Origin: an uncultured bacterium
GTDB taxonomy: Bacteria > Patescibacteriota > Minisyncoccia > Phycocordibacterales > UBA5272
DNA length: 64,000 nucleotides
Direction: 5' to 3'
Assembly: GCA_903875555.1 (NCBI GenBank)
Contig: CAIQWN010000045.1
Location: 1,535 to 65,534 of the forward strand
The notes beneath the pieces were generated by a model. That model was not told where the DNA came from. It worked only from the letters and a program-made list of their open reading frames with translations, and did no database searches. Below are positions 3,039-59,743 of the stretch, piece by piece. The stretch's first letter is position 1, and each line of letters opens with the position of its first letter. A program made the translations under genes and the position numbers.

Positions 3039-3062
3039 TCCTGCGAAAGCAGGAATCTAGTG
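3034..3062. repeat. palindromic dispersed repeat, copy 1 (GTCATTCC-TGC-GAAA-GCA-GGAATCTAGTG)
   Basis: gtcattcctgcgaaagcaggaatctagtg: 8-bp stem with a GAAA loop and conserved flanks gtc / ctagtg. Related copies lie at 5626, 23577, 49601 and 49984. Confidence 0.8.
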
Positions 3063-3162
3063 TGTTTGGTTTTCCTTACTTCGTTCTGCTTACTACACAC
3101 CACTTTTTCTATTGCATCTAAAATAAAATTGTGATAATATACCTAAACTAATCAATAAATCT

Positions 3163-3366
3163 ATGGCAAGCACATGTCCACTATGTCTAAAAGGTTCAAA
3201 AGTTGTTGGAAAATATAGCAACTCTGTTCGTGCTACAAAGTTTAATCCTTGTGGTGATCGTCGCGTATACCCAAACCTACAATGGGCTCGTATTCCAAAT
3301 GGACCTCGTGTAAAGATCTGTACTTCTTGTATGAAGCGCGGTCTACACCTACAGATTAAACTATAA
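3163..3366 (+). CDS. rpmB: probable 50S ribosomal protein L28 (bL28), zinc-ribbon form
   Basis: 67 aa, MASTCPLC...NSVRATKF...PNLQWARIPNGPRVKICTSCMKRG aligns with bL28 (C..TGK..GN.RSHA.N..KR...NLQ.VR....G..KRV.V....LKSG); four Cys. Confidence 0.5.
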   Translation: MASTCPLCLKGSKVVGKYSNSVRATKFNPCGDRRVYPNLQWARIPNGPRVKICTSCMKRGLHLQIKL

Positions 3367-3386
3367 GTTTAATCAACCAAAATTTA

Positions 3387-3413
3387 AAAGCGACACCCAA
3401 CGGTGTCGCTTTT
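3387..3413 (+). terminator. intrinsic terminator after the bL28 gene
   Basis: gcgacacc-caac-ggtgtcgc hairpin followed by ttttaaatttttt. Confidence 0.55.
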
Positions 3414-3428
3414 AAATTTTTTATATAA

Positions 3429-5625: not shown

Positions 5626-5654
5626 GTCATTCCTGTGGAAACAGGAATCTAGTG
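5626..5654. repeat. palindromic dispersed repeat, copy 2
   Basis: gtcattcctgtggaaacaggaatctagtg: the stem carries compensatory changes (tgt/aca) relative to copy 1. It lies between convergent gene ends. Confidence 0.8.
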
Positions 5655-8127: not shown

Positions 8128-8634
8128 TTAAAAAACAATGTTATACCCAGATCTATCTCCACGATACAGTTCTACATTATGTCCATCTGCCAACATCGTA
8201 GCAATTTCGTCAGCTCTTTCATTTAATGCAATACCACAATGTGCTTTAACATACTTCCAAATAATTTTTATTCCAGAGTTTTTTAATCTATCCTCCTCTT
8301 TTTTTAAAGCTTTCCATAAATCTTGATTCATAACTGGTTTTTTTGTTGAACCTTTCCAATCTTTTGCAATCCAACCATCTATCCACTCAGTCATTCCCTT
8401 TTTTACATACTGACTATCAGTACAAACTGTGACTTCTTTTGTTTCTTTTATTATATTACCTTCAATTTCTTTAAGTCCTTCTATACTAGCCAACAATTCC
8501 ATTTTGTTATTTGTTGTCATCTTATCACTACCACCAAGTTCAATCACTTCGTCTTTTGTGATAATAATACTTCCCCATCCCCCCTTTCCAGGATTTCCCC
8601 TACTTGATCCATCTGTCCAAATTTCTATTTTCAT
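8128..8634 (-). CDS. rnhA: ribonuclease HI
   Basis: MKIEIWTDGSSRGNPGKGGWG...CTDSQYV...KAHCG..LNERADE. Confidence 0.85.
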   Translation of the reverse strand: MKIEIWTDGSSRGNPGKGGWGSIIITKDEVIELGGSDKMTTNNKMELLASIEGLKEIEGNIIKETKEVTVCTDSQYVKKGMTEWIDGWIAKDWKGSTKKPVMNQDLWKALKKEEDRLKNSGIKIIWKYVKAHCGIALNERADEIATMLADGHNVELYRGDRSGYNIVF

Positions 8635-23510: not shown

Positions 23511-23641
23511 AACACAAGAGCGACATCGTTAGATGTCGCTCTTGTGTTTTATATTTTTTATTTTTAAATTCTAGACACTGGATTCCCGCTTTCGCGGGAA
23601 TGACACCCAATAACGGAGGAATGTTTACGTCAGCCAAGGCA
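23511..23641. repeat. composite repeat copy 2 (hairpin 23511-23548; ggaggaatgtttacgtcagccaaggca 23615-23641), interrupted by palindromic repeat copy 3 (23577-23605)
   Basis: Same two modules as 20623-20701, but the spacer is 66 bp instead of 14 bp and contains cactggattcccgctttcgcgggaatgac. Confidence 0.7.
23577..23605. repeat. palindromic dispersed repeat, copy 3 (reverse orientation; stem attcccgc/gcgggaat)
   Basis: cactggattcccgctttcgcgggaatgac: compensatory T>C and A>G changes keep the 8-bp stem. Confidence 0.8.
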
Positions 23642-44716: not shown

Positions 44717-47485
44717 ATGAAAAAGGGTTTTATTTTCCTTCTTTTAGTCATATCTTTTGGTGTGTTTGGTGTGGGGAAGGTGAATGCAGATGCAACACTA
44801 GATACATTAAACGAGAAATTAGACTGGAATCGTGGTACCTATAATAGTTGTATACAAAATAGAGTCAAACTTGAAACTAACTGTGCTGCACAACTTACTG
44901 CTTTTACTACAGCATATAACAATGTTTTAAATTATGATGGTGTGTCTGCGTCTTTGAAAGACACTATGTCTATGTCTCTAAAAACTTACACTGACTGTAT
45001 GGATCGTAACAAACAAGATATCAGTAAATGCCAAAACGAACTTAACCATCTTCAAAATGTTAACACTGCTATTAATAATGTAGAAGGAACAAATAATGCG
45101 CCTAAAGATATCTATGCTGACTGTAACAATAAAACGGGAGCAGAGGCCTCGTCATGTAGAGCAAACGCTCTCGCTTTAGATTGTAGAAACAGTAATTACG
45201 GTAGTAATATTCCAAAAGCTTGCAAAACTATACTAGAAGGTCAAGACAATGCAACAAAGACACTACTCAACGAGCAATTAATAGCAAATAAAAAAAATAA
45301 TCCTTGTGGTGTAAGTTTTATTCCTGGCATAGACTCTTTTAACCTAATAGACTGTGCTGATTCTCTTGTTACTAAATTCATACAATCAACCCTAATCAAA
45401 TACGCACAAATCCTTCTTTATTTTGCCGCCATGACACTTAATGAATCTATACGTTTTGCAATTTTTGATGCTAACGGTAGTGTGTCTCATGTTATTACAG
45501 AACTATATCCTGTGTGGCAATTAATAAGACAACTGGTTGATTATTGTGTTTTGTTTGCGACTCTTTATCTTGGGGCAATGTACATTATGAATATTGAAGC
45601 AGGAAAACAATTTATAGAAAAGCATGTCCCTTGGCTTATTTTGTTCGCTTTGTTTGTTAACTTTTCATATCCAGCAACAAAGGCCATGAAAGACGTCTCT
45701 AATATTATTTCTCTAAAAATTTATGCTTCAACTGTTGGTGGGGAAGTGCTGAATGATAGATTTGGTGCGGGTAATATTATAATGAGTAGTCTTGGTTTGC
45801 CAAGCTTAGTTGGCACAGTAACAGACTCAGGAGGAACATTAGGAAGTAGTGGTGCTGATATTTTAAAAAACACAACAAGCACAATACCATCGCTACTAGT
45901 GTTTGTTATGATAATGTTTATTGCTTTTATTTTTATAATTATTGCTTTCCTAATGATTATGAGTAGTATTGTTTGTGTTTTTATAATTACAGTCTCTCCT
46001 ATTTTATTAATACAAAAAATAATACCAAAACTGGACAACCTTGCTTCAAAAATAAGAGAAGAATTTTTTAATGCTCTTGCCCTACCTGTTGTTTTTACTT
46101 TAATGTTTTTCTTAACAACACAAGTAATAACAAAACTTGCACCATCTCTTCCAAGTTCGTCAGGAGCAGGAGGGCCTACTCTTGTTGTACAAATATTTAA
46201 TGTGGTTTTGATGACTATTTCCTTATGGATAATGTTTAAGGCTACAAAATCTGTAAGCGGAACATTTGGTAAGACAGTAGAAGAATGGGGAGGGAAAGCA
46301 GCTGGTCTTGCCATGATGGCAACACCCGCCATGGCAATGAGAGCAACCGCAGGAAGACTGGGCGCAGGAATGTTAAATTCAAACACAGCTATTGGTGGAT
46401 GGATTGATAAAAACAGAGGAACAATGCTTGGAGACTCATTTCATAAACTTGGCGGAGGTCTTGCGACTAGCACTTTTGATATGAGAAATGCTAAAGGTAT
46501 GCGAGAGTTGGGAGGCATGGGAGGAATTAAAGAAATGGGAACAATGGGAAGTAAAGAAACATTTAAAAACACACTAGACACAAAAGGAAGAAAGCTCGCA
46601 AAAAATGTTGGAGAAACAAAGAGCGAAGAAGGGAAGGAGAGACTACTTAGAAATGTAGGGAAGTATTCTTTGATGTCTCACGAACAAGATTATCTTCGAG
46701 AACAATTAAATAAAAACACAAACATAGTAACTGGGGAGAAAAAACGTGCTAATTATGACAAATCTTCGGTAGGCGAACAATATAAAATATTAAGTGACGA
46801 CCAAGAAGAAGCAATGAAAATAAACAAAGGAATAAAGGATGGAAAAATTACTACAGCCGAAGCTTCAAACGGACCAAAAACAAATTCAGGTTACAAAATG
46901 GGCAATGTCGTTCTTCCGGAAGATAGAAAAAAAGAAGAAAATCAAAAAGAAAAACTAAATAAAAAAATAGAAAATATTTCAGAAGAATATAAAAAAGCAG
47001 CAGGGGAAGACAAACAAAAAATTTATGAAAAACATTCAAATTACAGCGACTCAAAAGACATCCACGAGGCCTTGCAAAACATAGATAGAAACGACACAAA
47101 AAACACTTTCGAATATGACAACAAGAACACATTCGAGGGAAATATAGGGACTGTGCACGATGAAGCAAACAAAGAACATGAAGAGAGAAGAAGAGAAGAG
47201 GTGCAAAATAAATATAACGAGCTTTCTGGTGAAAATAAACAAACATACCACGAATCTCTTTCTCCTGAGGACAAAGAGATGTTAAAATCAAATGACGAAG
47301 AAGAAGCGCATAACACTACTGATAGTTCTTGGGATATGAAGCAAGAAGCTAAACACGATTATCTTTCTCATTTACAAAAACTTCATAAAGAAAATGAATC
47401 AGTTAAAAAAGAAAGTGAAGACTTTGCAACAAAATTTGTAAAAGGAGCACCAAGCGAAAGAAACAGCTTCGAAAAAGCAGCTTAA
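44717..47485 (+). CDS. VirB6/TrbL-like (PrgH/TcpH-type) polytopic membrane protein with N-terminal secreted Cys-rich domain and C-terminal charged tail
   Basis: Signal peptide, ~180-aa Cys-rich extracytoplasmic domain, at least 6 TM helices, Gly-rich segment (GGMGGIKEMGTMG), then a K/E-rich ~300-aa tail. Confidence 0.5.
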   Translation: MKKGFIFLLLVISFGVFGVGKVNADATLDTLNEKLDWNRGTYNSCIQNRVKLETNCAAQLTAFTTAYNNVLNYDGVSASLKDTMSMSLKTYTDCMDRNKQDISKCQNELNHLQNVNTAINNVEGTNNAPKDIYADCNNKTGAEASSCRANALALDCRNSNYGSNIPKACKTILEGQDNATKTLLNEQLIANKKNNPCGVSFIPGIDSFNLIDCADSLVTKFIQSTLIKYAQILLYFAAMTLNESIRFAIFDANGSVSHVITELYPVWQLIRQLVDYCVLFATLYLGAMYIMNIEAGKQFIEKHVPWLILFALFVNFSYPATKAMKDVSNIISLKIYASTVGGEVLNDRFGAGNIIMSSLGLPSLVGTVTDSGGTLGSSGADILKNTTSTIPSLLVFVMIMFIAFIFIIIAFLMIMSSIVCVFIITVSPILLIQKIIPKLDNLASKIREEFFNALALPVVFTLMFFLTTQVITKLAPSLPSSSGAGGPTLVVQIFNVVLMTISLWIMFKATKSVSGTFGKTVEEWGGKAAGLAMMATPAMAMRATAGRLGAGMLNSNTAIGGWIDKNRGTMLGDSFHKLGGGLATSTFDMRNAKGMRELGGMGGIKEMGTMGSKETFKNTLDTKGRKLAKNVGETKSEEGKERLLRNVGKYSLMSHEQDYLREQLNKNTNIVTGEKKRANYDKSSVGEQYKILSDDQEEAMKINKGIKDGKITTAEASNGPKTNSGYKMGNVVLPEDRKKEENQKEKLNKKIENISEEYKKAAGEDKQKIYEKHSNYSDSKDIHEALQNIDRNDTKNTFEYDNKNTFEGNIGTVHDEANKEHEERRREEVQNKYNELSGENKQTYHESLSPEDKEMLKSNDEEEAHNTTDSSWDMKQEAKHDYLSHLQKLHKENESVKKESEDFATKFVKGAPSERNSFEKAA

Positions 47486-48325: not shown

Positions 48326-49066
48326 ATGCCGAAAGACAATGTTATACCTCTCTTTGGGAGAGGTAAACCACAAGTACGTTCGACAAACAATAGAGATGAA
48401 CAAATAACTACAGCGTTAAGCAATCAACGATCTTTTAATTCTCTTGACGCTGCGTTTAGAATAGTAACCTCGAGCTCGTCACGATTAGATCTGGACGAGA
48501 CTGGACTTGGTACTGTAAAAATACTAAGCGAATCCACACTCGGGAAAATTCTTGATTTTTCATCAGAAAGGAGTAGGTTTGCTATTTTATGCGAACTTTG
48601 GAGTTTAAAAGAGTTCTTTACGATAGACGAGTCCAACAAACTTCTTGACTGTTTAAAAAGCAATGTACAACCAGACGAGAAGTTGACCAAAAAGTTTTTC
48701 GATAGTGATGTTTTTGCACAACTCTTGTGGTTAATGAAAAAACCAGGGTCTCATTTTCCTGTGGAGCGTTGTATTTCTGCAAACGAGATGAGAATTGATG
48801 TTTGCGACAAATTTGAAATAGCTTGTTACCAAACAACTCTTTATTACGAAAGAATGAACGGAGGAGTTAAAAACCCTGAAGATTTGTTTGTTAGCTCCTT
48901 GCTAGACTGGAACATTAAAAAAAGAATTCTTGCTGGCTTGGAACACAGTAGCTCTCCATTCATAGACGAAAAAACGTACCCTTCAGTGCAGTCTCAACTA
49001 AAAAACAACAAGGATGTGGTGCTGTCAGTAAGAAGCAACTACTTTATTGTTACAAAGAAACCCTGA
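48326..49066 (+). CDS. hypothetical protein with atypical (higher GC) composition
   Basis: 246 aa; a visibly GC-richer codon set (ccg, cga, ctc, gag), a strong gagggggg SD and a GC-rich terminator (cgccacctg...caggtggcg) at 49066-49100. Confidence 0.4.
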   Translation: MPKDNVIPLFGRGKPQVRSTNNRDEQITTALSNQRSFNSLDAAFRIVTSSSSRLDLDETGLGTVKILSESTLGKILDFSSERSRFAILCELWSLKEFFTIDESNKLLDCLKSNVQPDEKLTKKFFDSDVFAQLLWLMKKPGSHFPVERCISANEMRIDVCDKFEIACYQTTLYYERMNGGVKNPEDLFVSSLLDWNIKKRILAGLEHSSSPFIDEKTYPSVQSQLKNNKDVVLSVRSNYFIVTKKP

Positions 49067-49149
49067 CCGCCACCTGAATACCACAGGTGGCGATATTTTT
49101 ATGTGAACTCTCCACTTTCTAAGACTCTCTTTCTTGTTATACTATAATA

Positions 49150-49587
49150 ATGCAATTTAGGGTTCCACAATTCATTGATGTTGAAGATAAAATAATCGGC
49201 CCACTTACATTAAAACAGTTTGCTTATATTTTAGGTGCTGGTGGTTTTGCTTTTATTATTTGGACTTTTATAAGCATAAAAATTCTAGCGGTTATACTTA
49301 TAATTCCTCTTTCTGGATTATTTTTGTCGTTTGCTTTTCTAAAAGTAAACGGTAGGCCATCTATAGATGTTTTGGAACATGCTTTTAAATATTTTACTAA
49401 TGCTAAAATTTATACATGGAAACAACCAATACCAGAAACAAGAATAAAACAACCTGTTTCTCATTCAGAAAAAGCTGTTGCTGATATATCAAGAGAACTA
49501 TTAACAAAAAAAGTTGATTCTAACAAACTACACGATATATCATTTGGTCTTGATGTGTTAGACCGTAACCCACAAGAAAAAGAATAG
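49150..49587 (+). CDS. PrgI/TcpE (VirB3-like) family small membrane protein
   Basis: VPQFIDVEDKIIGPLTLKQFAYILGAGG followed by two TM helices matches the PrgI family N-terminal pattern. Confidence 0.45.
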   Translation: MQFRVPQFIDVEDKIIGPLTLKQFAYILGAGGFAFIIWTFISIKILAVILIIPLSGLFLSFAFLKVNGRPSIDVLEHAFKYFTNAKIYTWKQPIPETRIKQPVSHSEKAVADISRELLTKKVDSNKLHDISFGLDVLDRNPQEKE

Positions 49588-49600
49588 ACCGACTCCCTCT

Positions 49601-49662
49601 GTCATCCCTGCGAAGGCCGTCCACAGGTATCGACTCCTAATCAGTCGATCAGGGATCTGGTG
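49601..49662. repeat. palindromic dispersed repeat, copy 5 (long variant with internal 30-bp insert that is itself palindromic)
   Basis: gtcatccctgcgaagg...atcgactcctaatcagtcgat...cagggatctggtg. Confidence 0.65.
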
Positions 49663-49672
49663 TATTTTTGAA

Positions 49673-49957
49673 CTATAAATCAAAATATAAATCTCTCCAT
49701 TGTAAATTTGTCTTTTCAATTAATTTTACTTTCCATTCTCTTTTCCATGCTTTAAGTTGTTTTTCTTTTTTAATAGCACTTTCAATATTTTCTGTTTGTT
49801 CATACCAAACTAAATTAGTTATGTTGTATTCTTTTGTAAAACCTTCAACTACTTTTTCTTTGTGTTCATAAACCCTTCTTTTTAAATCATTGGTAACACC
49901 CACATATAAAGTTCCGTATCTTTTACTAGCTAAAATATATACACAGCATTGTTTCAT
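49673..49957 (-). CDS. small GIY-YIG nuclease family protein
   Basis: Starts at MKQCCVYILASKRYGTLYVGVTNDLKRRVYEHK...GFT (GIY-YIG core). The ORF-track N-terminal extension to 50068 runs through repeat copy 4. Confidence 0.7.
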   Translation of the reverse strand: MKQCCVYILASKRYGTLYVGVTNDLKRRVYEHKEKVVEGFTKEYNITNLVWYEQTENIESAIKKEKQLKAWKREWKVKLIEKTNLQWRDLYFDL

Positions 49958-49983
49958 TTTTATATTGTAACAAAATAATAAAC

Positions 49984-50012
49984 ACTGGATCCCTGCCTTC
50001 GCAGGAATGACA
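49984..50012. repeat. palindromic dispersed repeat, copy 4 (reverse orientation)
   Basis: cactggatccctgccttcgcaggaatgac. Confidence 0.8.
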
Positions 50013-50126
50013 AAAAGAAAAGCAGGGATAACACCCAGAGATTCCAGTAAAACACTTACGACATTCAATTCACAAGAAAAAGAATAAATGAAAAGTTTTT
50101 AAAATTAAATAGGATATAATAAAGGT

Positions 50127-50768
50127 ATGAATCCTTCATCAGCAACACAACAATTTGTTCCAATAGAAAAAATTCGTGACGGTATAATTACTTTAAAAAA
50201 TGGAGAGTTGCGTGCTATCCTTATGACCAATTCACTTAACCTGTCTTTAAAAGGTCAAGACGAGCAACTGGCGATACTTTCTCAATTTCAAAATTTCTTT
50301 AACTCACTAGAGTTTCCTGTTCAATTATTTATTCAATCAAGAAGATTAAATATTAAACCTTATATAACATTACTTGAAGAAAGAGAAAAAGAGGTTCGTG
50401 AAGATTTAATTAAATTACAAATCAGAGAGTATAATAAATTTATAAAATCATTCACGGACAACGCAAATATTATGACAAAACATTTTTTTGTTACTGTTCC
50501 ATATTTAGCACCAACAACTAGTGGCGGGGGAATGTTTCCTTTTGGAGATAAAAAAGATGTTATGTCTGAAGAAAACAGAAACTTTGAAACAGCTAGAATG
50601 CAACTAGAACAAAGACTTTCTGTTGTATCACAAGGTCTTTCACGTTTTGGTGTTCGTTCACAAAAATTAAACACTGAAGAGGTGGTAGAATTATTTTATA
50701 AAATATTTAATCCAAGCGAACAAGATCACTCGGCTCCTAAATTAACTAAGGAAATGATGGAAAAATAA
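50127..50768 (+). CDS. VirB4/TraE-family N-terminal domain, encoded as a separate ORF
   Basis: ITLKNGELRAILMTNSLNLSLKGQDEQLAILSQFQNFFNSLEFPVQLFI resembles the N-terminal domain of Gram-positive VirB4 (TraE/PrgJ). It ends at TAA 4 nt before the ATPase ORF, which is in the +1 frame. Confidence 0.5.
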   Translation: MNPSSATQQFVPIEKIRDGIITLKNGELRAILMTNSLNLSLKGQDEQLAILSQFQNFFNSLEFPVQLFIQSRRLNIKPYITLLEEREKEVREDLIKLQIREYNKFIKSFTDNANIMTKHFFVTVPYLAPTTSGGGMFPFGDKKDVMSEENRNFETARMQLEQRLSVVSQGLSRFGVRSQKLNTEEVVELFYKIFNPSEQDHSAPKLTKEMMEK

Positions 50769-50772
50769 ACAT

Positions 50773-52593
50773 ATGGGATTATTAGATTTTTTAAATACAA
50801 CAAAAAAAGAAAGTAGTATCAGGCCAATTCTTCCAGAACAGGTTTATCAAATGGCGGAAATGCAACTGAAAGACATAATCGCCCCTTCAGCTCTTGGTGT
50901 TACCCCAAAGTTACTCAACCTAGGAACAACAGTGGTTCGTAATTATTTTGTTATTTCTTATCCTCATTATTTAACAGATAACTGGTTAAGCCCAATCATT
51001 AACCTCGATAAAGTTTTTGATATTGCTATACATGTTATACCTCTCGACACAGGTAAGGTTATGCGTGAATTCCAAAGAAAAGTTGCTGAGGTGGAAAGTC
51101 AAATAATGCAAAGAGAAGAAAAAGGACTTGTTCGTGATCCACAACTTGATATTGCTTATAAAGACCTCGAAGATTTACGTGATGGACTTACTCAAGCTCA
51201 GGAAAAAATGTTTGATGTGTCTCTTTATATTTCTATTTATGGAGCAGATGAAAATGAAGTAGAAAAAGTAGAAAACGAAATAAAAACAATACTAGAAAGT
51301 GGTATGGTTTATGTAAAACCTGCACTCTTCCAACAAGAAGCTGGTTTCCTTAGTACTATCCCTCTAGGAAATGATATCTTGCAAATAAAAAATAAAATAA
51401 ACACGTCTCCTCTTTCTTCTTTCTTTCCTTTCGTTTCTTTCGATCTCTCTTCCGATAGTGGAATTCTCTATGGTATAAATCGTCACAACGGATCGCTTGT
51501 TTTATTTGATAGATTTTCACTAGAAAACTACAATTCTATTATTTTTGCTAAATCAGGTTCTGGTAAAAGTTATTCTACTAAACTCGAAATACTAAGAACT
51601 TTAATGTTCGACACCGAAGTAATTATTATAGACCCAGAAAAAGAATATGAGTATCTAGCGGAATCAGTAGGGGGAAGATATTTTAATATTTCGTTGACGT
51701 CGGATCACCACATCAATCCATTTGATCTACCTGCACCAAATGAGGATGAGTCTCATTCTGAAGTATTACGATCAAACATCATCGGTCTCGTTGGTTTGTT
51801 TCGTGTGATGCTTGGAGGATTAACACCGGAAGAAGACGCAATCATTGATCAAGCTTTAACTGAAACCTATGCTCTAAAAGACATCACAGGAGACACTGAC
51901 TTTACAAAACTCGACCCACCACTACTTTCGGATTTCGAAATGGTTTTGGGTGGAATAGATGGATCAGAAAACATTCTTTCTCGTCTTGCAAAATACACAA
52001 AAGGAACGTGGTCTGGTTTCATTAATCAAGCATCTAATGTTGATATAAACAAAAAATTAGTTTGTTTTTCTATTCGTGACATGGAAGACGAACTTAAGCC
52101 TGTGGCGATGTATTTAATTACACATTATATTTGGAACGCTGTTAGAAAAAACATTAAAAAGAGATTACTCGTGGTGGATGAAGCTTGGATTATGATGAAA
52201 AATGAAGACACTGCTTCTTTCCTATTCGGACTTGCTAAGCGTGGAAGAAAATATTTCTTAGGGCTTGCCACAATTACTCAAGACGTTGGCGACTTCCTTC
52301 GTTCTCCATATGGTTTACCAATTATCACCAACTCTTCTATACAAATCTTATTAAAACAATCTCCTTCTTCTATCGACGTGGTTCAAAAAACTTTCGGACT
52401 AACAGACGAAGAAAAATATTTACTTCTAGAGTCGAACGTCGGGGAGGGAATATTCTTTGCTGGACTTAAACACGTTGCTATAAAAATTATTGCCTCTTAC
52501 ACAGAAGATCAAATTATCACTTCTGACCCTTCACAATTACTCAAAATTAAAAAAGAAAAAGATGAACTTAGTAATATAGAAACAACAAAATGA
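50773..52593 (+). CDS. VirB4/TraE/CagE family type IV secretion ATPase (C-terminal ~600 aa)
   Basis: Walker A FAKSGSGKSYST, Walker B LLVVDEAW, TITQDV motif. Confidence 0.8.
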   Translation: MGLLDFLNTTKKESSIRPILPEQVYQMAEMQLKDIIAPSALGVTPKLLNLGTTVVRNYFVISYPHYLTDNWLSPIINLDKVFDIAIHVIPLDTGKVMREFQRKVAEVESQIMQREEKGLVRDPQLDIAYKDLEDLRDGLTQAQEKMFDVSLYISIYGADENEVEKVENEIKTILESGMVYVKPALFQQEAGFLSTIPLGNDILQIKNKINTSPLSSFFPFVSFDLSSDSGILYGINRHNGSLVLFDRFSLENYNSIIFAKSGSGKSYSTKLEILRTLMFDTEVIIIDPEKEYEYLAESVGGRYFNISLTSDHHINPFDLPAPNEDESHSEVLRSNIIGLVGLFRVMLGGLTPEEDAIIDQALTETYALKDITGDTDFTKLDPPLLSDFEMVLGGIDGSENILSRLAKYTKGTWSGFINQASNVDINKKLVCFSIRDMEDELKPVAMYLITHYIWNAVRKNIKKRLLVVDEAWIMMKNEDTASFLFGLAKRGRKYFLGLATITQDVGDFLRSPYGLPIITNSSIQILLKQSPSSIDVVQKTFGLTDEEKYLLLESNVGEGIFFAGLKHVAIKIIASYTEDQIITSDPSQLLKIKKEKDELSNIETTK

Positions 52594-53570
52594 TTAAACC
52601 AACTGGTAAAAAAATAATATTCTCACTTTTTATTTTTATATTTTTAAATAGTTTCTCTTTTGCTCAGTTAACTGACACAATTGAAGTGTCTCCAGAAAAC
52701 CCCGGAGCTTTTCAAGATGTTACTCTCACTATTAGATCTTATGCTTTTGATGTTGATACTGTCTCTATAACTTGGGACATTAATAATAAAGTTGTTTTAA
52801 GTGGTGTTGGTGAAAAAAAATTATTAACAAAAACTGGTGGTGTTGGATTACAAAAAATAGTCCATGTTATAGCAATGAAGGGCAGTCAAAAAGTTTTTGA
52901 TCAAGTAATTTCACTAAACCCTCAATCTGTCGATTTAATCTGGGAATCAAAAGAAAGTTATGTTCCTCCTTTTTATGAGGGTAAGGCTCTGCCAGGGGAA
53001 AGCTCTCTCGTTTCTGTTGTGGCACTACCAAACTTTATTTATAATGGAAAAACAGTAGATCCAAAAACTATTTCTTATGCTTGGTATTTAAACGATGAAA
53101 TAATAAAAGACGCTAGTGGTTTTAATAAGCAGAATTTAATAATGAATCTTGATTATCTTTCAGAAAAAAATATAATCAGGGTTGCGGCACGTGACCAAAA
53201 CGGAAACATTGCTGAAAAAGAAATTGTTATTGCCCCAGAACAAATAGACCCTGTTTTTTATTTAAACGATCCACTTTTTGGAATAGATTTAAATAGGGCA
53301 ATACAAGACAGATTTGAAACAAATAAAGAATTTACTTTAAACTTTGTACCATATTATTTATCAACAAAAAATATTCCTGATGACCAAATAAAATCTTCTT
53401 GGTCTCTAGACGGGCTTCCTTTAACAAACATAAAAAATAATTCTATTTCTTTAAAACCATTAGCCGACAGTTACGGTTCAAAAGTTTTAAGAATAAACAT
53501 AGAAAACACAAGTAGAATATTGCAAGAAATAAAAACTAGTTTGGAAATAATTTTTGACACAAGAAAATAA
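52590..53570 (+). CDS. secreted protein (T4SS-like locus)
   Basis: Signal peptide MIKPTGKKIIFSLFIFIFLNSFSFAQ; its ATG overlaps the VirB4 stop (ATGA). Confidence 0.45.
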   Translation: MIKPTGKKIIFSLFIFIFLNSFSFAQLTDTIEVSPENPGAFQDVTLTIRSYAFDVDTVSITWDINNKVVLSGVGEKKLLTKTGGVGLQKIVHVIAMKGSQKVFDQVISLNPQSVDLIWESKESYVPPFYEGKALPGESSLVSVVALPNFIYNGKTVDPKTISYAWYLNDEIIKDASGFNKQNLIMNLDYLSEKNIIRVAARDQNGNIAEKEIVIAPEQIDPVFYLNDPLFGIDLNRAIQDRFETNKEFTLNFVPYYLSTKNIPDDQIKSSWSLDGLPLTNIKNNSISLKPLADSYGSKVLRINIENTSRILQEIKTSLEIIFDTRK

Positions 53571-53571
53571 C

Positions 53572-54438
53572 ATGAACACAACAGGATCAAAAGAAAAATA
53601 CACATTAATGGTGCCTGAGCTAAATCAGTTTCTTGGGACAGAAACAAATAAAACACCCCTTGGTTTCAACACCACCGACCTAAGCAATACCGGTTGGATG
53701 AATTTTTTAATTTGGATGCTTTATATATCTATTTTTATATTTGCAGCATACAGATCTGTTGTTGTCGCCGGACTATTTGTAACAGGTATCCCAGAGAAAA
53801 GAAAAGAGGGTAAAGAGGCCTTAAAAAAAGTTGTTCTCGGTGTTATCTTTGTGCTAGCTATGTCACCACTTCTTAATTGGTTAAGACCGTCAATGCAATT
53901 AAATACCTTAGTTTTTCCTGGAACAAAAATATTTTCTCCGCAAATATCTACGCAAACAAACCAAGACCAAACAATAATCACTGACCCTGGGACATCACCA
54001 ACAGTAGTTATTGGTGATACAACAAACAGACAAACACTCAAAAACGCCGGAATAAACATCAAAAAAGACAACTGTACTTTTGCTCAGTGGCAAGAACTAA
54101 AACCTTCCTGTACGAGCTTAGAGGAACTTCCACAAGAAACTGTGAACATGCTTATTGATTTAAAAAATAAATGTAAATGTAGCATACAAATAACAGGAGG
54201 AACAGAGCCAGGCCACTCAACACACGGAAGAAGCAGATACCCTGTTGATTTACACTACGACACAAATTCTGATTTAAATAAATATCTTACTGGGCCAGAC
54301 CTAAACAAAAACCCTTATTTAAGTTTTTGTTATAACACTTATGGTTCAGTCGACGGCTATGTTTTTTGTGATGAAAAATCAACAGACAGACACTGGCATG
54401 TTTGTAACTGGAATAAAAACAGCTGCACAAACGGTTAA
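53572..54438 (+). CDS. membrane protein with pilin-like TM hairpin and Cys/His-rich C-terminal domain (possible cell-wall hydrolase in the PrgK/TcpG position)
   Basis: Two TM segments separated by PEKRKEGKEALKK, then a domain with 10 Cys and the motifs GHSTHGRSRYPVDLH and RHWHVC. The first ATG is at 53572; the ORF-track start at 53554 is a TTG. Confidence 0.4.
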   Translation: MNTTGSKEKYTLMVPELNQFLGTETNKTPLGFNTTDLSNTGWMNFLIWMLYISIFIFAAYRSVVVAGLFVTGIPEKRKEGKEALKKVVLGVIFVLAMSPLLNWLRPSMQLNTLVFPGTKIFSPQISTQTNQDQTIITDPGTSPTVVIGDTTNRQTLKNAGINIKKDNCTFAQWQELKPSCTSLEELPQETVNMLIDLKNKCKCSIQITGGTEPGHSTHGRSRYPVDLHYDTNSDLNKYLTGPDLNKNPYLSFCYNTYGSVDGYVFCDEKSTDRHWHVCNWNKNSCTNG

Positions 54439-54459
54439 TCTCTCTGTTATACTTAATCT

Positions 54460-55779
54460 ATGGATGAAAACTTTCGTAAAAAAATAATTATCTTTTTTAT
54501 AGTAGCGGTAATTTTTGCTGTTTCTGTTTTAATTTATTTTTTCTTTATAAAAAAACCTACGGGTGTCCCTGTGTATACAGATAAAACAAAAACTGTTTTA
54601 AACAATGAAGGAAAAACCTATAAGAAACCACAGCAGGGAAACAACCAAGACGGGAACCAAAATAATTATACAGAAATACAGCAACCTGAGGAGAAAAAAC
54701 TTTCTAAAATCTGGGACAAACCAACGGCTGGTTTTTCTTTTGTTGATCAAACAATAATTACAACAGCAACGACCAGTAAAATAATTAAAGGAACTTCGAC
54801 TGTTGTTATTGTTCAAAATAAATCAACCTCTACAAAAATTTACTTTGTAGACAGCATGACTGGTTTTATTTACTCTTATGACCTTAAAAAGAAAAACATC
54901 TATCAGATAACAAACACAACCATTCCGTCTGTTCATGATGCTTATATTTTTAATAATGGTGGAGAGGTTTTAATGAGATATGCAGATGGGGATGTAATTA
55001 AATCATTAACTGCACAAATACCAACCGTTAGTGAAGGAAATTCACCTTTGTCTTTGGTTGATATTTCTTATTTACCAAACGATGTTTCTTCTGTTTCTAC
55101 AAATTTGTTTGATAAAAATCTAAGCTATGTTTTAACAAATAAAAACGGGAGTACTATCAAAACCATTTCAAACAAAACAACAAACGGTCTCTACTCTTCT
55201 TTGTTTTCTGGTTGGAATATTTCCTACGGGGGGAACACTGTTCATTTAACAACCAAACCCTCATCTTACATATCTGGAACAAGCTTAAACTTAAATTCAG
55301 GTGAAATTCTTCTAAGAGATAAAACTGGGCTAAACATTCTTCCTTCAAAAACAGATGAAAATATTTTTGGAAGCTTCTTTTCTAGTTTGGGTATAAAAGA
55401 TTTTATAATGTCTACAAAAACTGGTGATGTTTCATACCTGACTTTTCAAACGCTGTCAGAAAAATGTGAGTGGGGGATGAAGGATAGATTTATTTTGTGT
55501 GGTGTTCCACAACTAATAGAAAACAATAACGACGGCTTACCTGACGCGTGGTACAAAGGAAAAATGACTTTTAACGATAATCTTTATATTAAGAATCTTA
55601 AAGATTCAAAAGAAAGTGTGTTTTTTAGATTTGAATACGAGACCGATGAAAAAATAGATATGATTAAACTAAAACTAAACCAAACAGAAAATTATTTAGG
55701 TTTTATAAACAAAAAAGATAAAAACTTTTGGTTAATGAAAACAGACTATTTAACAACAGTTGACAGTGTTGTTGATTAA
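54460..55779 (+). CDS. membrane-anchored extracytoplasmic protein (T4SS-like locus)
   Basis: Signal anchor IIIFFIVAVIFAVSVLIYFFFI; 439 aa, Thr/Asn-rich. Confidence 0.4.
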   Translation: MDENFRKKIIIFFIVAVIFAVSVLIYFFFIKKPTGVPVYTDKTKTVLNNEGKTYKKPQQGNNQDGNQNNYTEIQQPEEKKLSKIWDKPTAGFSFVDQTIITTATTSKIIKGTSTVVIVQNKSTSTKIYFVDSMTGFIYSYDLKKKNIYQITNTTIPSVHDAYIFNNGGEVLMRYADGDVIKSLTAQIPTVSEGNSPLSLVDISYLPNDVSSVSTNLFDKNLSYVLTNKNGSTIKTISNKTTNGLYSSLFSGWNISYGGNTVHLTTKPSSYISGTSLNLNSGEILLRDKTGLNILPSKTDENIFGSFFSSLGIKDFIMSTKTGDVSYLTFQTLSEKCEWGMKDRFILCGVPQLIENNNDGLPDAWYKGKMTFNDNLYIKNLKDSKESVFFRFEYETDEKIDMIKLKLNQTENYLGFINKKDKNFWLMKTDYLTTVDSVVD

Positions 55780-55782
55780 GAT

Positions 55783-56502
55783 TTATTTTTTCTCTTTTTT
55801 AATTCTATCTTTAATATAAACATCTTGTAAAAAAGAAAGAATGTTGTTTGTTGTCCAATAAAGACCTAGCGCCGCTGGTAAAACGTATGATGAAACACCA
55901 ATTATCACAGGCAAAACGTAAAGCATTTGGACTCGCATTGATTTCATAAAATGATCTTGAAAATTTTCTTCCTTGTTTTCTTTTTTGTTCGCCACCATAC
56001 TAGACGTCTGTCTTCTTGCAAGTATATAAGCTGTTATGCCGGTAGAGATCGCAATAAAAATATTCTTCTTTGTAACATCAAGAATACCGAAAGCTTGTGT
56101 GTGTAATATTTCTGGAAAAGAAACAAAAGAATAAATTGAACTACCGTCGAACTTCATTCCTTTTGAAAAAACAAAGTATAGGGCGATAAACACTGGTATT
56201 TGTATAAGCATAGCAATAAGCGATGACAGTGGATTTATTTTTTCTCTTTTATAAACCTCCACTAGTTTGCGAGAAAGTTCTTGCGGTTTGTCTTTGTGGT
56301 TATCCCTAATTACTTTTATTTCATCTTCAACAGCCTTCATCAAATGTTGTGTTCTTGTTGCTTTTAAATTAATAGGCAAAAGAATTGTTTTTACTGTGAC
56401 AGTAACCAAAACAATAGACGCCCCTATATCATGGAGGGGAACGATCTGTAAAAACAAAACTAATAGATTATAAACTGGTTCGTAAAAAATTATATGAAAC
56501 AT
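55783..56502 (-). CDS. yidC: membrane protein insertase YidC (short Gram-positive type)
   Basis: 239 aa, 5 TM helices with a conserved C-terminal region. Confidence 0.85.
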   Translation of the reverse strand: MFHIIFYEPVYNLLVLFLQIVPLHDIGASIVLVTVTVKTILLPINLKATRTQHLMKAVEDEIKVIRDNHKDKPQELSRKLVEVYKREKINPLSSLIAMLIQIPVFIALYFVFSKGMKFDGSSIYSFVSFPEILHTQAFGILDVTKKNIFIAISTGITAYILARRQTSSMVANKKENKEENFQDHFMKSMRVQMLYVLPVIIGVSSYVLPAALGLYWTTNNILSFLQDVYIKDRIKKEKK

Positions 56503-56504
56503 GA

Positions 56505-56819
56505 TTATTGTATTTTAACAGACATTTCTAAAATGTTTAACTTTAATTTTTCATAAGGCAAATACAAAACCTCTTTTTTTGGGTAAAAAATTATAAAACA
56601 AGAGTCTTTTAATTTTATTTCTCTGAAAATATTAAATATTTTTCTTTTGATTTTGTTTCTGTCTACCGCTCTTTTTGATATTTTTTTAGAAACAACAACA
56701 GCACACTTTGTTTTTGAAGACAAAAGATAGCCAATATCTAAATATTGACCTCTTAAGATTTTTTTATTTGAGATTGCGGAAAAATCCTTTTTAGAGAGCC
56801 TTTCCGATTTTTTTAACAT
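56505..56819 (-). CDS. rnpA: ribonuclease P protein component
   Basis: 104 aa, basic, RLSKKDF...; its position between rpmH and yidC is canonical. Confidence 0.8.
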   Translation of the reverse strand: MLKKSERLSKKDFSAISNKKILRGQYLDIGYLLSSKTKCAVVVSKKISKRAVDRNKIKRKIFNIFREIKLKDSCFIIFYPKKEVLYLPYEKLKLNILEMSVKIQ

Positions 56820-56822
56820 AAA

Positions 56823-56957
56823 TTAAACAGATAATTTCTTGCGACCAACAGCTCTACGACGAGCAAGCACCTTTCTTCCTCCTGAAGTTTTAGTACGAGC
56901 CAAAAATCCGTGGGTTGTAAATCTCTTCTTTCTTTTTGGTTGATATGTTTGTGACAT
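56823..56957 (-). CDS. rpmH: 50S ribosomal protein L34
   Basis: Manual translation gives [44 protein letters not shown] (44 aa), which is below the ORF-track size cutoff. Confidence 0.85.
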
Positions 56958-57087
56958 AACGAGTATTCTATATTAAAACCAAACATAAATCAAATCATGT
57001 GTTTTTGTCTTTAACACAAGTCAATTTGCTTAACATGTTGTCTAGTTGATTGCTTTTTTGAGAAGTGTATACTTAAAAACAATTACT

Positions 57088-58428
57088 ATGGATTATCAAC
57101 AGTTATGGAACAGTGCTTTATCTCAAGTAGAACTTGAACTATCTAGAGTTAATTTTAATACTTGGTTTAAGAACACACGTATAGTTGACTATAAAGACGG
57201 TGAAGTGATTATTGGTGTTCCGAATGAATTCGTAAAGGATTGGCTTACTCAAAAATATCATAAATTTATTTTACGCATTCTTCGTTCTATACACGAAAGT
57301 GTGCGCTCTGTTTCCTTTTCTGTTGTTAAACCCGAATCCCTACAAAAAAAAGCTCAGAGTATACAAATTTCTGGAAACAACACACTTCCTCTTAACGATC
57401 TCTATGTAAATAAGGACGACGGACTTAATCCTAGGTATAATTTTGATAATTTTGTTGTTGGTTCTTTTAATGATATTGCTTTTGCTACCTCTCAGGCGGT
57501 AATAAACAATCTTGGGGTTTTATATAATCCTTTTTTTGTGTACGGAAACACAGGGCTCGGAAAAACACACATGATGCAAGCGATTGGAAATACAATCAAA
57601 AAAAACCATCCTGAGAAAAAAATCTTTTTTACTTCTTTGGAAAAATTTTATATGGATCTTGTTAATTCAACAAACCTAAACAAAATAAACAGTTTTAAAG
57701 AAAAATACAGAAAATATGATGTTTTTATTTTAGACGACATACAGTTTATAACAGGTAAAGAAAAAACCCAGGACGAACTTTTCCATTTATTTAATTCTTT
57801 ATACGAAACAAATAAGCAGATTATATTTTCTTCTGACCGCCACCCTAATTTTATAACGGGACTAGAAGACAGACTTAAATCGAGATTCAGTCAGGGGATG
57901 ATTGTTGATGTGTCTTTACCTGATTTTGAATCACGGTTTGCAATAATTAAAACAAAAACCACTGAGTTTAAAGATAAAATCCCCCAAGAGGTGCTCGAAT
58001 ACGTTGCCGAAACAGTGCACGGAAACATAAGGGAACTTGAGGGTGTTATGAATCTCTTAATTAATTATATAAACATAAAAAAACAGGCAATTTCTTTAAA
58101 CGATGCTAAAGTTTTATTAAAAAATAGCATTCGTTCTCGAAAAAATGTTTCTGTTCCAGAAATAGTAAAAGTTATTTGTGATTATTATAATATTTCTGAT
58201 TCTTTTATCTATAATAAAACAAGAAGGAAAGATGTTGTTAAGCCTCGCCAAATAATTATGTATATACTTAGAGAGGTTTTTGATATTTCTTACCCTGTTA
58301 TAGGGGAAAGACTTGGTGGAAGAGATCACACAACAGTAATCCATTCCTATGAAAAAATTAAGACGAATATTAAAACAAATCCTGAATTAAATAAGGAAAT
58401 TGAAGATATTAAAAACCTTATAAACTAG
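57088..58428 (+). CDS. dnaA: chromosomal replication initiator DnaA
   Basis: Walker A GNTGLGKTH, AAA+ and C-terminal DNA-binding domain. The first ATG is at 57088; the ORF-track 57046 start is a TTG. Confidence 0.9.
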   Translation: MDYQQLWNSALSQVELELSRVNFNTWFKNTRIVDYKDGEVIIGVPNEFVKDWLTQKYHKFILRILRSIHESVRSVSFSVVKPESLQKKAQSIQISGNNTLPLNDLYVNKDDGLNPRYNFDNFVVGSFNDIAFATSQAVINNLGVLYNPFFVYGNTGLGKTHMMQAIGNTIKKNHPEKKIFFTSLEKFYMDLVNSTNLNKINSFKEKYRKYDVFILDDIQFITGKEKTQDELFHLFNSLYETNKQIIFSSDRHPNFITGLEDRLKSRFSQGMIVDVSLPDFESRFAIIKTKTTEFKDKIPQEVLEYVAETVHGNIRELEGVMNLLINYINIKKQAISLNDAKVLLKNSIRSRKNVSVPEIVKVICDYYNISDSFIYNKTRRKDVVKPRQIIMYILREVFDISYPVIGERLGGRDHTTVIHSYEKIKTNIKTNPELNKEIEDIKNLIN

Positions 58429-58651
58429 GGCTGTTAATAAACCTGTTAATAAGATAATAATATCTTATTAACAACCCCTCTCTTATTATAAAAATTTTTT
58501 AATTTTTATAATATATTAACAAATTAAAAAAGCTTGTTATTTTTATTTTAAAATTAAAACCTTATATTTCCTTTGTTTTGTTAGGGTTTTTAATATATAC
58601 ACATAATTAACATCACTATACTTATTATTATCTTTTATATATACTATTACT
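58429..58651. other. candidate oriC/DUE: AT-rich dnaA-dnaN intergenic region with repeated TGTTAATAA motifs and a 13-bp perfect inverted repeat
   Basis: tgttaataa x2 direct (58432, 58444) plus inverted ttattaaca (58465); IR tgttaataagata-ataa-tatcttattaaca at 58444-58473; then about 150 bp of nearly pure A/T. Confidence 0.4.
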
Positions 58652-59743
58652 ATGAAATTCGAATGTAAAAGTAGAAACCTGATTAATACCATTAATCAAA
58701 TAAGTAGAGCTCGTAGTAAAAGTTTATCCCAAGAATATCTTCAAGATATATATCTACAACTAGAAGAACACCAACTAACTTTAAGGGCCACTAACTTAGA
58801 AATTTTTTGTGAAAAAAGTATTTCTGTTAAAGGAATACAAAACGGAAAATGTGTTTTAAAAGGAGAGACTTTAATAAAAATAACAAACTTTTTACAAAAA
58901 GAAGAAATTAATTTAATTTGCGAATTAAATGAAAACATTTTTATAATAAAAAGTGAAAAAGAAAATATAGAAATAAAAACAATACCTTTTGAAGATTTTC
59001 CAGCCTTACCACAACAAGGGGAGAGTGTTGGCGAAATAAAAACTGAGAATTTAATATCTTTAATTAAAAGTGTTTCGTTTTGTTGTGCAACAACAGAAAT
59101 AAAACCAGAAATCTCATCAGTTTTTATTTATTCAAAAGAAGACAATCTTTATTCTGTTGCAACAGACTCATATCGATTAGCGGAAAAACACATAAACAAT
59201 GAATCAAAATTAAATATTTCTATTTTAATTCCTCAAAAAAACATAAGCGAAATAGTTTCTATTTTATCAGAAGAAGAGGGTGTTATTAATATTTATAAAA
59301 ACGAAGGACTATTAACATTAAATATTAACAGTTTAACTTTATGTATAAATATAATATTAGGACAATTCCCAGACTACAAACAACTTTTTCCAAAAGAATA
59401 TACAACAACTTGTTATTTAAACAAAAACGAATTACAAAAAGCTTTAACATTAACAACTTGTTTTACAGAACAATACTCACAAGTTAAATTTTTAATAGAA
59501 GATGAAAAACTAACACTACATAGTAAAAATGAACAAATAGGACAAGTGACAAATATTGTAGACATTAAAAAAGAAGGGGAAAATATAGAAGTAAACTATA
59601 ACAATAAATATTTTTTAGAAGTAATACCACACCTAGCAAAAGAAAAAATAAAACTATCTTTTACAACAGCACAAAAACCTGTGTTTTTACAAAGTGAAAG
59701 CGATATAAGTTTCGTTTATTTACTTATGCCACTAAACAGATAA
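58652..59743 (+). CDS. dnaN: DNA polymerase III beta sliding clamp
   Basis: 363 aa with a three-domain beta-clamp layout, directly downstream of dnaA. Confidence 0.9.
   Translation: MKFECKSRNLINTINQISRARSKSLSQEYLQDIYLQLEEHQLTLRATNLEIFCEKSISVKGIQNGKCVLKGETLIKITNFLQKEEINLICELNENIFIIKSEKENIEIKTIPFEDFPALPQQGESVGEIKTENLISLIKSVSFCCATTEIKPEISSVFIYSKEDNLYSVATDSYRLAEKHINNESKLNISILIPQKNISEIVSILSEEEGVINIYKNEGLLTLNINSLTLCINIILGQFPDYKQLFPKEYTTTCYLNKNELQKALTLTTCFTEQYSQVKFLIEDEKLTLHSKNEQIGQVTNIVDIKKEGENIEVNYNNKYFLEVIPHLAKEKIKLSFTTAQKPVFLQSESDISFVYLLMPLNR

Follow-up and report, generated by a model that had tools for sequence, protein, structure and literature searches.

Quiñonero-Coronel et al. (2025, Microb Genom; PMC12102498) have described TrsD, a protein of the patescibacterial T4SS, as remotely homologous to the N-terminal portion of VirB4. 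The passages of their article drawn on here count 2,272 TrsD homologues in Patescibacteria, the criterion being a hit by the CONJScan/MacSyFinder MPF_FATA TrsD profile, and place 1,664 of these beside virB4; TrsD is given as the most abundant T4SS component in these bacteria, the T4SS gene clusters are placed near dnaA, and TrsD is reported to be essential in S. epibionticum ML1. We cite the homology from this article alone, as the main text of Guglielmini et al. 2014 does not contain the term 'TrsD', and the essentiality second-hand, as the main text of Wang et al. 2023 contains neither 'VirB4' nor 'TrsD'; our search of the literature for a split form of VirB4 brought up no paper. The abstract, the one section and the term-searched passages of PMC12102498 used here hold no account of junction anatomy, of spacer or frame statistics, of the TrsE break point or of a trsD -10 box. 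Two further kinds of described system are compared with our locus below: the TrsD/TraD and TrsE/TraE proteins of pSK41/pGO1 (MPF_FATA, pGO1 subclass), and full-length VirB4 proteins such as TrwK of R388 (823 aa), the CD1110-type VirB4 (~750 aa) and the VirB4 of the Mycoplasma ICE (~890 aa).

The window, by which we mean the whole stretch of 64,000 nucleotides that was analysed, carries a trsD-virB4 pair within the following set of features:

44717-47485, + strand: candidate VirB6-like membrane protein, 922 aa, with weak family matches
49150-49587, + strand: prgI (VirB3-like), Pfam PrgI E 3.6e-9, above cut-off
50115-50120, + strand: TATAAT, a -10-like hexamer and putative promoter, 7 nt upstream of the trsD ATG
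50127-50768, + strand: trsD-like ORF1, ATG at 50127, TAA at 50766-50768, 213 aa, homologue of the N-terminal portion of VirB4
50766-50775, + strand: junction of the two cistrons (TAA of ORF1, spacer ACAT, ATG of ORF2), a putative termination-reinitiation site
50773-52593, + strand: virB4 (TrsE-like) ORF2, ATG at 50773, stop at 52591-52593, a 606-aa T4SS ATPase
50773-50793, + strand: ORF2 N-terminal motif MGLLDFL, conserved among orthologues
51547-51570, + strand: Walker A, AKSGSGKS, ORF2 residues 259-266
52165-52188, + strand: Walker B, LLVVDEAW, ORF2 residues 465-472
52590-53570, + strand: 326-aa gene of no assigned family, a conserved neighbour whose ATG overlaps the virB4 stop (ATGA)
53554-54438, + strand: VirB2-like T4SS pilin, Pfam T4SS_pilin PF18895, E 5.1e-6

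The T4SS gene order around ORF2 is the same in relatives. The weak matches of the 922-aa product are to TrbL/VirB6 (Pfam, E 0.0047) and to the CD3337/EF1877 mobilome membrane protein (NCBIfam, E 1.3e-4), and at the related locus L001 its counterpart by position is a gene of 990 aa; there prgI also keeps its place, as it does at L086, and a 324-aa gene overlaps the virB4 stop just as the 326-aa gene does here. Pfam and NCBIfam scans returned no match for the 326-aa product; the pilin scores 26.9 bits against the PF18895 cut-off of 26.6. No relaxase or VirD4 was found in a family-library screen of the ORFs from 33603 onward. The cluster adjoins yidC, rnpA, dnaA and dnaN and its closest relatives are Paceibacteria/Parcubacteria MAGs: it is a chromosomal, origin-proximal T4SS cluster of a Paceibacteria-type patescibacterium (CPR).

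The layout of the pair is as the sequence-only reading had given it, with the 213-aa ORF1 ending at TAA and the 606-aa ATPase ORF beginning in the +1 frame after a spacer of 4 nt (ACAT, 50769-50772), the two totalling 819 aa. ORF2 exceeds the cut-off of the NCBIfam model for the CD1110-family VirB4-like ATPase (NF045971; 368.6 bits against 325, E 6.5e-110), and also matches Pfam P-loop_TraG (E 1e-27; 97.3 bits against a cut-off of 25.8), the C-terminal domain of VirB4 from T. pseudethanolicus (PDB 4AG5, E 7.4e-40) and TrwK (7O41, E 2.1e-8); both of its Walker motifs, A and B, are intact. By itself ORF2 is not a single-chain full-length VirB4, for it covers positions 182-733 of the 752 in the CD1110 model, while ORF1 carries positions 1-119 (E 1.9e-8); the two are thus complementary parts of one VirB4. 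ORF2 is the rest of that protein, comprising the later part of the N-terminal region and the Walker A/B ATPase domain, as is TrsE of pSK41/pGO1, with whose residues 2-617 (pSK41) its residues 3-572 align end to end (E 1e-36).

ORF1 is a TrsD-like protein that corresponds to the N-terminal ~200 residues of full-length VirB4 ATPases, and a resemblance to the VirB4 N-terminal domain, already suspected from the sequence, was found alike with NCBIfam, with BLASTP against a fused relative and with Foldseek. Besides the CD1110 match, ORF1 matches positions 101-230 of the 894 in the NCBIfam VirB4_plasma model (E 6.9e-12), and NCBIfam matches to the VirB4 N-terminus were obtained for all 49 members of the ORF1 family that were scanned. 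In BLASTP, ORF1 aligns to residues 3-210 (E 5e-44) and ORF2 to residues 230-796 of P0254, a relative of 797 aa in which the two parts are fused. When the AlphaFold model of ORF1 (of moderate quality, mean pLDDT 70.8) was compared by Foldseek, the top 14 PDB matches were all R388 TrwK/VirB4 chains, at probability 0.98-1.0. It might be argued that the 213-aa ORF is simply an unrelated upstream gene with no kinship to VirB4, as the local Pfam-A scan, whose library may lack the PF26593 model, assigned it to no family, its phmmer search of PDB sequences found no VirB4 (the sole match, at E 0.035, being spurious), and the profile of 49 homologues had no match there either, so that the link of ORF1 to solved VirB4 structures is one of fold comparison only. 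The NCBIfam, BLASTP and Foldseek results all contradict this, as do the precomputed Pfam label PF26593 (TraC-like), carried by the identical protein P0001 and by all 120 listed homologues, and the published homology of TrsD to the VirB4 N-terminus (PMC12102498); we give the unrelated-gene idea practically no chance.

The assignment to TrsD itself is one of remote homology. ORF1 scores far below the curated cut-off of the NCBIfam TrsD model (NF041427; 21 bits against 200, E 2.4e-4), and 40 of 49 diverse members of its family reach E <= 1e-3 with that model (best 1.4e-11), these being E-values only, of a size which implies scores far below 200 bits. ORF1 is thus a TrsD-like remote homologue that lies outside the narrow NCBIfam subfamily. 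With hhalign, the diverse 49-sequence family profile gave near full-length homology to pSK41 TrsD (probability 79.8%, E 1.4e-5, 173 columns, 8-198 against 34-217), and a shallow alignment was uninformative (probability 1.3%, E 0.041). A trsD-like gene lies directly upstream of virB4, on the same strand, both in the window and in all of the analysable relatives.

The junction invites the suspicion of a single virB4 broken by error. A run of five A at 50761-50765 is such that the loss of one A would fuse the two frames (...MMENKHMGLL...), and the concern that a sequencing or assembly indel here had split one 819-aa gene was therefore reasonable on sequence alone. It did not survive comparison: two other metagenome assemblies, each independent, match the junction without a single difference over 141 nt, and relatives that have no homopolymer at this point keep the layout of stop, spacer and ATG (TAA-TTCT-ATG at L001, for example; at L005, also with two genes, the junction is TAA-TAT-ATG). 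We examined relatives among GTDB species genomes, taking the best 80 of 268 matching stretches, which gave 80 analysable loci from Paceibacteria/Parcubacteria-type Patescibacteria; all 80 have two separate genes with a stop codon and a separate ATG between them. An indel is, on these grounds, about as improbable as such an explanation can be.

The same survey bears on the suggestion that virB4 in this genome is a pseudogene, recently inactivated by a frameshift, for which nothing speaks except the frame change itself. Both ORFs are intact and conserved across the 80 species, always as two genes. ORF1 is 202-220 aa long in these loci, with 51-69% identity; ORF2 is of ~600-623 aa in nearly all complete loci (the exceptions include two intein-containing versions of 1264 aa) and has 64-86% identity to almost all orthologues, with one truncated match at 51%. 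Its ATG and an MGLFDFL head are conserved among relatives, the ATPase motifs are undamaged, and TrsD homologues are reported essential in S. epibionticum (PMC12102498). A recent inactivation has, we believe, next to nothing to recommend it, and of the three explanations that the sequence-only reading put forward (indel, inactivation or a genuine split) it is the genuine split that stands.

Wider sampling of ORF1 homologues gives a similar picture. A word-indexed search found ~1,000 of them, and the 120 listed (90%-identity clusters; 61-100% identity) are all of 202-239 aa. Of the best 150 representatives of 50%-identity clusters, 149 are short (132-443 aa), none of those being full-length, and a single one is fused, namely P0254 (locus L086), in which the point corresponding to the ORF1/ORF2 junction falls in a poorly conserved linker of ~20 aa. 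The split, we conclude, is of ancient date, and purifying selection on it shows in 80 invariant columns among 26 orthologues and in the ORF2 identities given above.

A different way of rescuing a full-length VirB4 would be a programmed +1 ribosomal frameshift, or read-through of the stop. The gap is a short one of 4 nt and, since the TGA at 50755-50757 closes the ORF2 frame upstream and that frame is open from 50758, both frames are open across an 11-nt window (50758-50768). Against this, the shift that would be needed varies among relatives, with frame offsets of 0, +1 and +2 in 17, 33 and 30 loci, so that 17 loci are in frame, and spacers range from -4 to 445 nt; the spacer sequences of the 80 loci are mutually unrelated and share no slippery sequence, and in every case ORF2 starts with a conserved ATG and N-terminal motif of its own. 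We judge programmed frameshifting or read-through to be extremely improbable. Because all three offsets are common and spacers vary, the +1 frame seen here is incidental, and we are highly confident that ORF1 and ORF2 are real genes in their own right, each translated separately, within a patescibacterial T4SS, and that they are the products of an ancient split.

How the two genes are expressed is a question on which our data go beyond the literature, and here trsD appears to be leaderless (or nearly so) and virB4 to be translationally coupled to it, judging by sequence patterns at the orthologous loci. In 64 of the 80 loci, against 2.5 expected from shuffling, the motif TATA[AC]T lies within -22 to -4 of the trsD ATG, mostly starting at -15 to -12; elsewhere in the window, too, many genes have such a box at -12. 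A sigma-70 consensus scan of 49000-56000 listed 18 promoter-like sites (27 in shuffles), among which the TATAAT at 50115-50120, which has no -35 match, does not figure. A Shine-Dalgarno core precedes ORF2 in 4 of 79 loci and is found at 4 of 40 genes in the window. The spacer between the genes peaks strongly at 1-8 nt (58 of 80 loci), 4 nt being the commonest length (19 loci) and 5 nt the next (13); the ORF1 stop is TAA in 75 loci and the ORF2 start is ATG in 79. Short spacers, a TAA stop followed by an ATG start and a leaderless first cistron are typical of coupled cistrons.

These short spacers, together with the rarity of Shine-Dalgarno motifs and the leaderless look of the first cistron, make reinitiation at the ATG at 50773, as had been suggested from the sequence, plausible. 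We propose that the -10 box 7 nt upstream of the trsD ATG may direct transcription to start at that codon or right beside it, to give a leaderless mRNA, and that ribosomes terminating at the trsD TAA may begin again at the virB4 ATG 4 nt further on, with the consequence that TrsD and VirB4 would be made in roughly equimolar amounts. TrsD would then associate non-covalently with the VirB4 hexamer, where the free protein would take the place of the covalent N-terminal segment of TrwK/VirB4, making contact with VirB3/PrgI and the membrane complex. Coupling by reinitiation is not obligatory across the clade, for both genes are kept in some relatives whose spacers measure 64-445 nt (one of these spacers seems to contain an inserted ORF). 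Such loci would suit a scheme in which the split is genuine but virB4 initiates independently, de novo, on an A/U-rich and unstructured intercistronic region; starts without a Shine-Dalgarno sequence are apparently general in this genome. The strong peak of short spacers, the near-uniform TAA and ATG and the apparently leaderless first cistron argue the other way, and we regard independent initiation as credible but rather unlikely.

A bolder form of the coupling proposal is that in Patescibacteria, largely free of Shine-Dalgarno sequences and users of leaderless mRNAs in this scheme, the split is functionally exploited and not neutral: trsD would be translated by 70S ribosomes from a leaderless transcript, virB4 solely by reinitiation 1-8 nt downstream, in a 1:1 ratio, and the MGLFDFL peptide would dock TrsD, recruiting the free protein, and via it PrgI/VirB3, to the hexamer. 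The one fused relative lacks this peptide, which is similar to the N-terminus of TrsE. This scheme is tentative and in our view somewhat doubtful; were it true, the pGO1-type MPF_FATA systems would share a single fission event with the entire T4SS clade of Patescibacteria.

For annotation, our results mean that pairs of this kind are not frameshifted or pseudogenised virB4 genes and should not be 'repaired' by merging. To describe the locus as one VirB4 divided by a stop codon and a shift to the +1 frame gives the layout correctly but misleads in its framing: these are ordinary adjacent cistrons in an arrangement that is already published (PMC12102498, in the parts cited), the standard trsD-virB4 pair of the T4SS in Patescibacteria, which has been reported as essential to the epibiotic growth of Saccharibacteria. 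What we add is modest detail, namely the break point shared with pSK41 TrsD/TrsE, the linker in the fused relative, and an operon in which a leaderless trsD seems to come first, with tightly coupled cistrons after it; this leaves the current picture of T4SS biology unchanged.

Compared with full-length VirB4, the models of which ORF1 and ORF2 together cover, the locus has the Walker A and B motifs in common (in ORF2), and the predicted fold of ORF1 matches a region of TrwK; the difference is that the N-terminal segment is covalently joined in those proteins, and in the rare fused patescibacterial form, whereas here it is a separate polypeptide. The pSK41/pGO1 systems share the two-gene layout, with a trsD of 227 aa, a 14-nt spacer and a TrsE of 672 aa in pSK41 (213 aa, 4 nt and 606 aa here), and they share the break point, ORF2 residue 3 aligning with TrsE residue 2. 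The similarity is very remote, at 17% identity for TrsD and 24% for TrsE, and pSK41 is a staphylococcal conjugative plasmid with a relaxase and a coupling protein, whereas our locus lies on the chromosome, beside the replication origin. It is the patescibacterial TrsD-VirB4 pair, as described in the cited parts of PMC12102498, that matches most fully: the same stand-alone homologue of the VirB4 N-terminus lies immediately upstream of virB4, with the same PrgI/VirB3, VirB6-like and VirB2-like pilin genes, on the chromosome beside dnaA. From that pair the locus differs in no substantive way, and it is one more instance of it.

The trsD-like ORF1 runs from an ATG at 50127 to a TAA at 50766-50768 (213 aa) and is separated by the spacer ACAT from the virB4 (TrsE-like) ORF2, which starts with an ATG at 50773, ends at 52593 (606 aa) and lies in the +1 frame relative to ORF1; on re-reading the window sequence, we found the coordinates given for both ORFs by the sequence-only reading to be exact. 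A TGA at 50755-50757 closes the ORF2 frame on the upstream side. That reading had offered three explanations for the junction (a sequencing or assembly indel, a recent inactivating frameshift, or a genuine split with reinitiation), and an indel was a fair worry from sequence alone because loss of one A from the A5 run at 50761-50765 would fuse both frames.

ORF1 and ORF2 are both parts of VirB4. ORF2 matches the NCBIfam CD1110-type VirB4 model with 368.6 bits (curated cut-off 325; E 6.5e-110), spanning only positions 182-733 of 752; it contains Pfam P-loop_TraG, with Walker A and Walker B both intact. Among solved structures, ORF2 matches the VirB4 C-terminal domain 4AG5 (E 7.4e-40) as well as TrwK. 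ORF1 matches positions 1-119 of the same CD1110-type model (E 1.9e-8), and positions 101-230 of 894 in the Mycoplasma ICE VirB4 model (E 6.9e-12); its match to the NCBIfam TrsD/TraD model is weak. When its AlphaFold2 model (mean pLDDT 70.8) was searched against the PDB with Foldseek, the best 14 matches were R388 TrwK/VirB4 chains (probability 0.98-1.0, E 1e-3 to 2e-2, TM ~0.41), the next match having a probability of 0.35. The NCBIfam VirB4 and Foldseek TrwK matches bear out the proposed resemblance of ORF1 to the VirB4 N-terminal domain, and rule out that it is unrelated to VirB4. A precomputed table labels the ORF1 protein PF26593 (TraC-like); our local Pfam-A copy, which may lack this model, gave nothing at E <= 0.01.

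Two other independently assembled metagenomes carry an identical ORF1 protein, and over 141 nt surrounding the junction all three assemblies are 100% identical. A word-indexed search gave ~1,000 ORF1 homologues, those among the matches listed (120, at 61-100% identity) being 202-239 aa long, and HMMER, run exhaustively against 1.84 billion cluster representatives, gave 2,005 matches, the best 150 of which comprised 149 short proteins (132-443 aa, none full-length) and one 797-aa fusion. From 268 matching stretches in GTDB species genomes we took the best 80 and mapped in each where the ORF1 orthologue stops and the ORF2 orthologue starts: two separate genes were present in 80/80 analysable loci, with ORF1 orthologues of 202-220 aa and, in almost every complete case, ORF2 orthologues of ~600-623 aa. 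Spacers ranged from -4 to 445 nt, most frequently 4 nt (19 loci) and then 5 nt (13 loci), and showed no kinship of sequence among relatives (for example TAA-TTCT-ATG in L001); relative to ORF1, ORF2 was shifted by +1 at 33 loci and by +2 at 30, and shared its frame at 17. The stop was TAA in 75/80 and the start ATG in 79/80, and no conserved slippery site was found across the 80 loci. Since the split is present at all 80 loci while spacers and frames vary, it is old and maintained, and the frame relation accidental. Thus a sequencing or assembly indel is excluded, the junction being identical in three assemblies and split in all 80 relatives, as are a recent pseudogene, by the two separate genes at every locus, and programmed frameshifting, by the varying frames and absent slippery site; of the three original explanations, only the genuine split survives.

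The one fusion among those best 150 representatives, P0254, is the product of a rare fused trsD-virB4 gene in a patescibacterial MAG (locus L086, 544-2937), which directly follows prgI and lies ~2.4 kb from dnaA. Its residues 3-210 align with ORF1 residues 2-197 (E 5e-44) and residues 230-796 with ORF2 residues 32-598 (54% identity), therefore the break sits in a linker of ~20 residues. ORF1 ends in a variable tail (198-213) with predicted disorder, and the ORF2 head has a conserved MG(L/I)FDFL, then a variable K/S/T-rich stretch, then a conserved LPEQVYK.AEMQLKDI.

The trsD ATG is preceded by a TATAAT box (50115-50120) ending 7 nt ahead of it, and TATA[AC]T occurs within -22..-4 in 64/80 orthologous loci (2.5 expected), starting mostly at -15 to -12. 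Of 47 window ORFs of >= 150 aa, 14 have an extended -10-like box (commonly TGTTATAAT or TATACT) that begins at precisely -12 from the ATG and 19 have one beginning between -18 and -10, examples lying upstream of 6128-7636 (minus), 8128-8634 (minus), 27442, 33603, 44717, 50127, 54460 and 58652. Shine-Dalgarno cores are rare (4/40 window genes; 4/79 ORF2 leaders). This suggests widespread leaderless mRNAs in the source organism; a literature search on leaderless mRNAs or Shine-Dalgarno sequences in the Candidate Phyla Radiation found no title devoted to the topic. Our comparisons show two conserved cistrons, both VirB4 pieces, and the -10 boxes and rare Shine-Dalgarno cores suggest that trsD may head a leaderless transcript and that termination-reinitiation at the ATG next to its stop could drive virB4 translation, with both products made in near-equimolar amounts. 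Coupling cannot be obligatory in every relative, since spacers measure 64-445 nt in some, and these spacers favour a live, if rather doubtful, rival for the translation step, in which virB4 is translated by independent initiation. In the R388 structure of Macé et al. 2022 (PDB 7O41) the VirB4 N-terminal region reportedly contacts VirB3 and the tails of VirB8 at the membrane; by analogy, TrsD may supply this contact in trans.

The T4SS cluster adjoins the presumed replication origin region (yidC, rnpA, dnaA, dnaN; 55783-59743).

Features around the junction in the window
49150-49587: prgI, T4SS cluster
49600-49617 and 49995-50012: 18-nt inverted repeats (94% complementary), bracketing the next gene
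49673-49957 (minus): GIY-YIG nuclease-domain gene, 94 aa (Pfam E 1.4e-14), between prgI and trsD
after virB4, overlap by ATGA: conserved 326-aa gene
53554-54438: VirB2-like pilin, T4SS cluster
55783-56502 (minus): yidC
56505-56819 (minus): rnpA
57046-58428: dnaA
58652-59743: dnaN

The GIY-YIG gene, with its repeats (49600-50012), looks like a small inserted cassette, and widens the space between prgI and trsD to 539 nt, versus 180 nt in L001. It is flanked by two copies of the palindromic motif CCTGCYTTCGCAGGAATGAC, which has five window copies at <= 3 mismatches (3034-3053, 5626-5645, 23585-23604, 49601-49620, 49992-50011) versus 0 expected (100 shuffles) and may represent a REP- or MITE-like element dispersed in these genomes; by eye, a similar hairpin, GGATTCCCGTTTTCACGGGAATGACA, lies in the 64-nt trsD-virB4 spacer of L057. 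Spacers of 64-131 nt occur in L057, L060, L061, L074 and L078, some with an inverted-repeat look, and in L076 a 445-nt insert (2975-3419), with an apparent small ORF of ~130 aa (by eye; start MGEIESEKIK...), separates the two genes; trsD-virB4 uncoupling is evidently tolerated in these relatives. The virB4 ORF is 1264 aa in L056 (4635-8426; titled Zambryskiibacteriota) and L081 (Parcubacteria group); a Pfam scan of L056 alone found an intein (Intein_splicing and LAGLIDADG_3 homing endonuclease) between the TraC_F_IV (residues 105-198) and P-loop_TraG (residues 913-1215) matches.

Quiñonero-Coronel et al. 2025 (PMC12102498) describe TrsD as remotely homologous to the N-terminal portion of VirB4 and as more abundant in Patescibacteria than any other T4SS component (2,272 homologues, 1,664 with virB4), report that the TrsD homologue of S. 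epibionticum ML1 is listed as essential and place dnaA often close to patescibacterial T4SS clusters. The trsD-virB4 arrangement is thus already known from that account; the origin-proximal placement in the window agrees with it, and the gene order fits its description, making the window an instance of the published arrangement. What is mildly new is confined to the statistics on the junction, the coincidence of its break point with that of TrsE and the apparently leaderless and coupled expression. In hhalign, a profile of 49 ORF1-family sequences aligns with TrsD of the staphylococcal conjugative plasmid pSK41 (173 columns, probability 79.8%, E 1.4e-5); all 49 members match the N-terminal part of VirB4_plasma, 40 match TrsD, 36 the CD1110 VirB4 model and 18 the TIGR00929 VirB4 model. 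In pSK41, a trsD of 227 aa is followed, after a 14-nt spacer, by the 672-aa TrsE ATPase, with which ORF2 aligns from residue 3 against 2 through 572 against 617 (E 1e-36), and therefore the two systems share the same break point.
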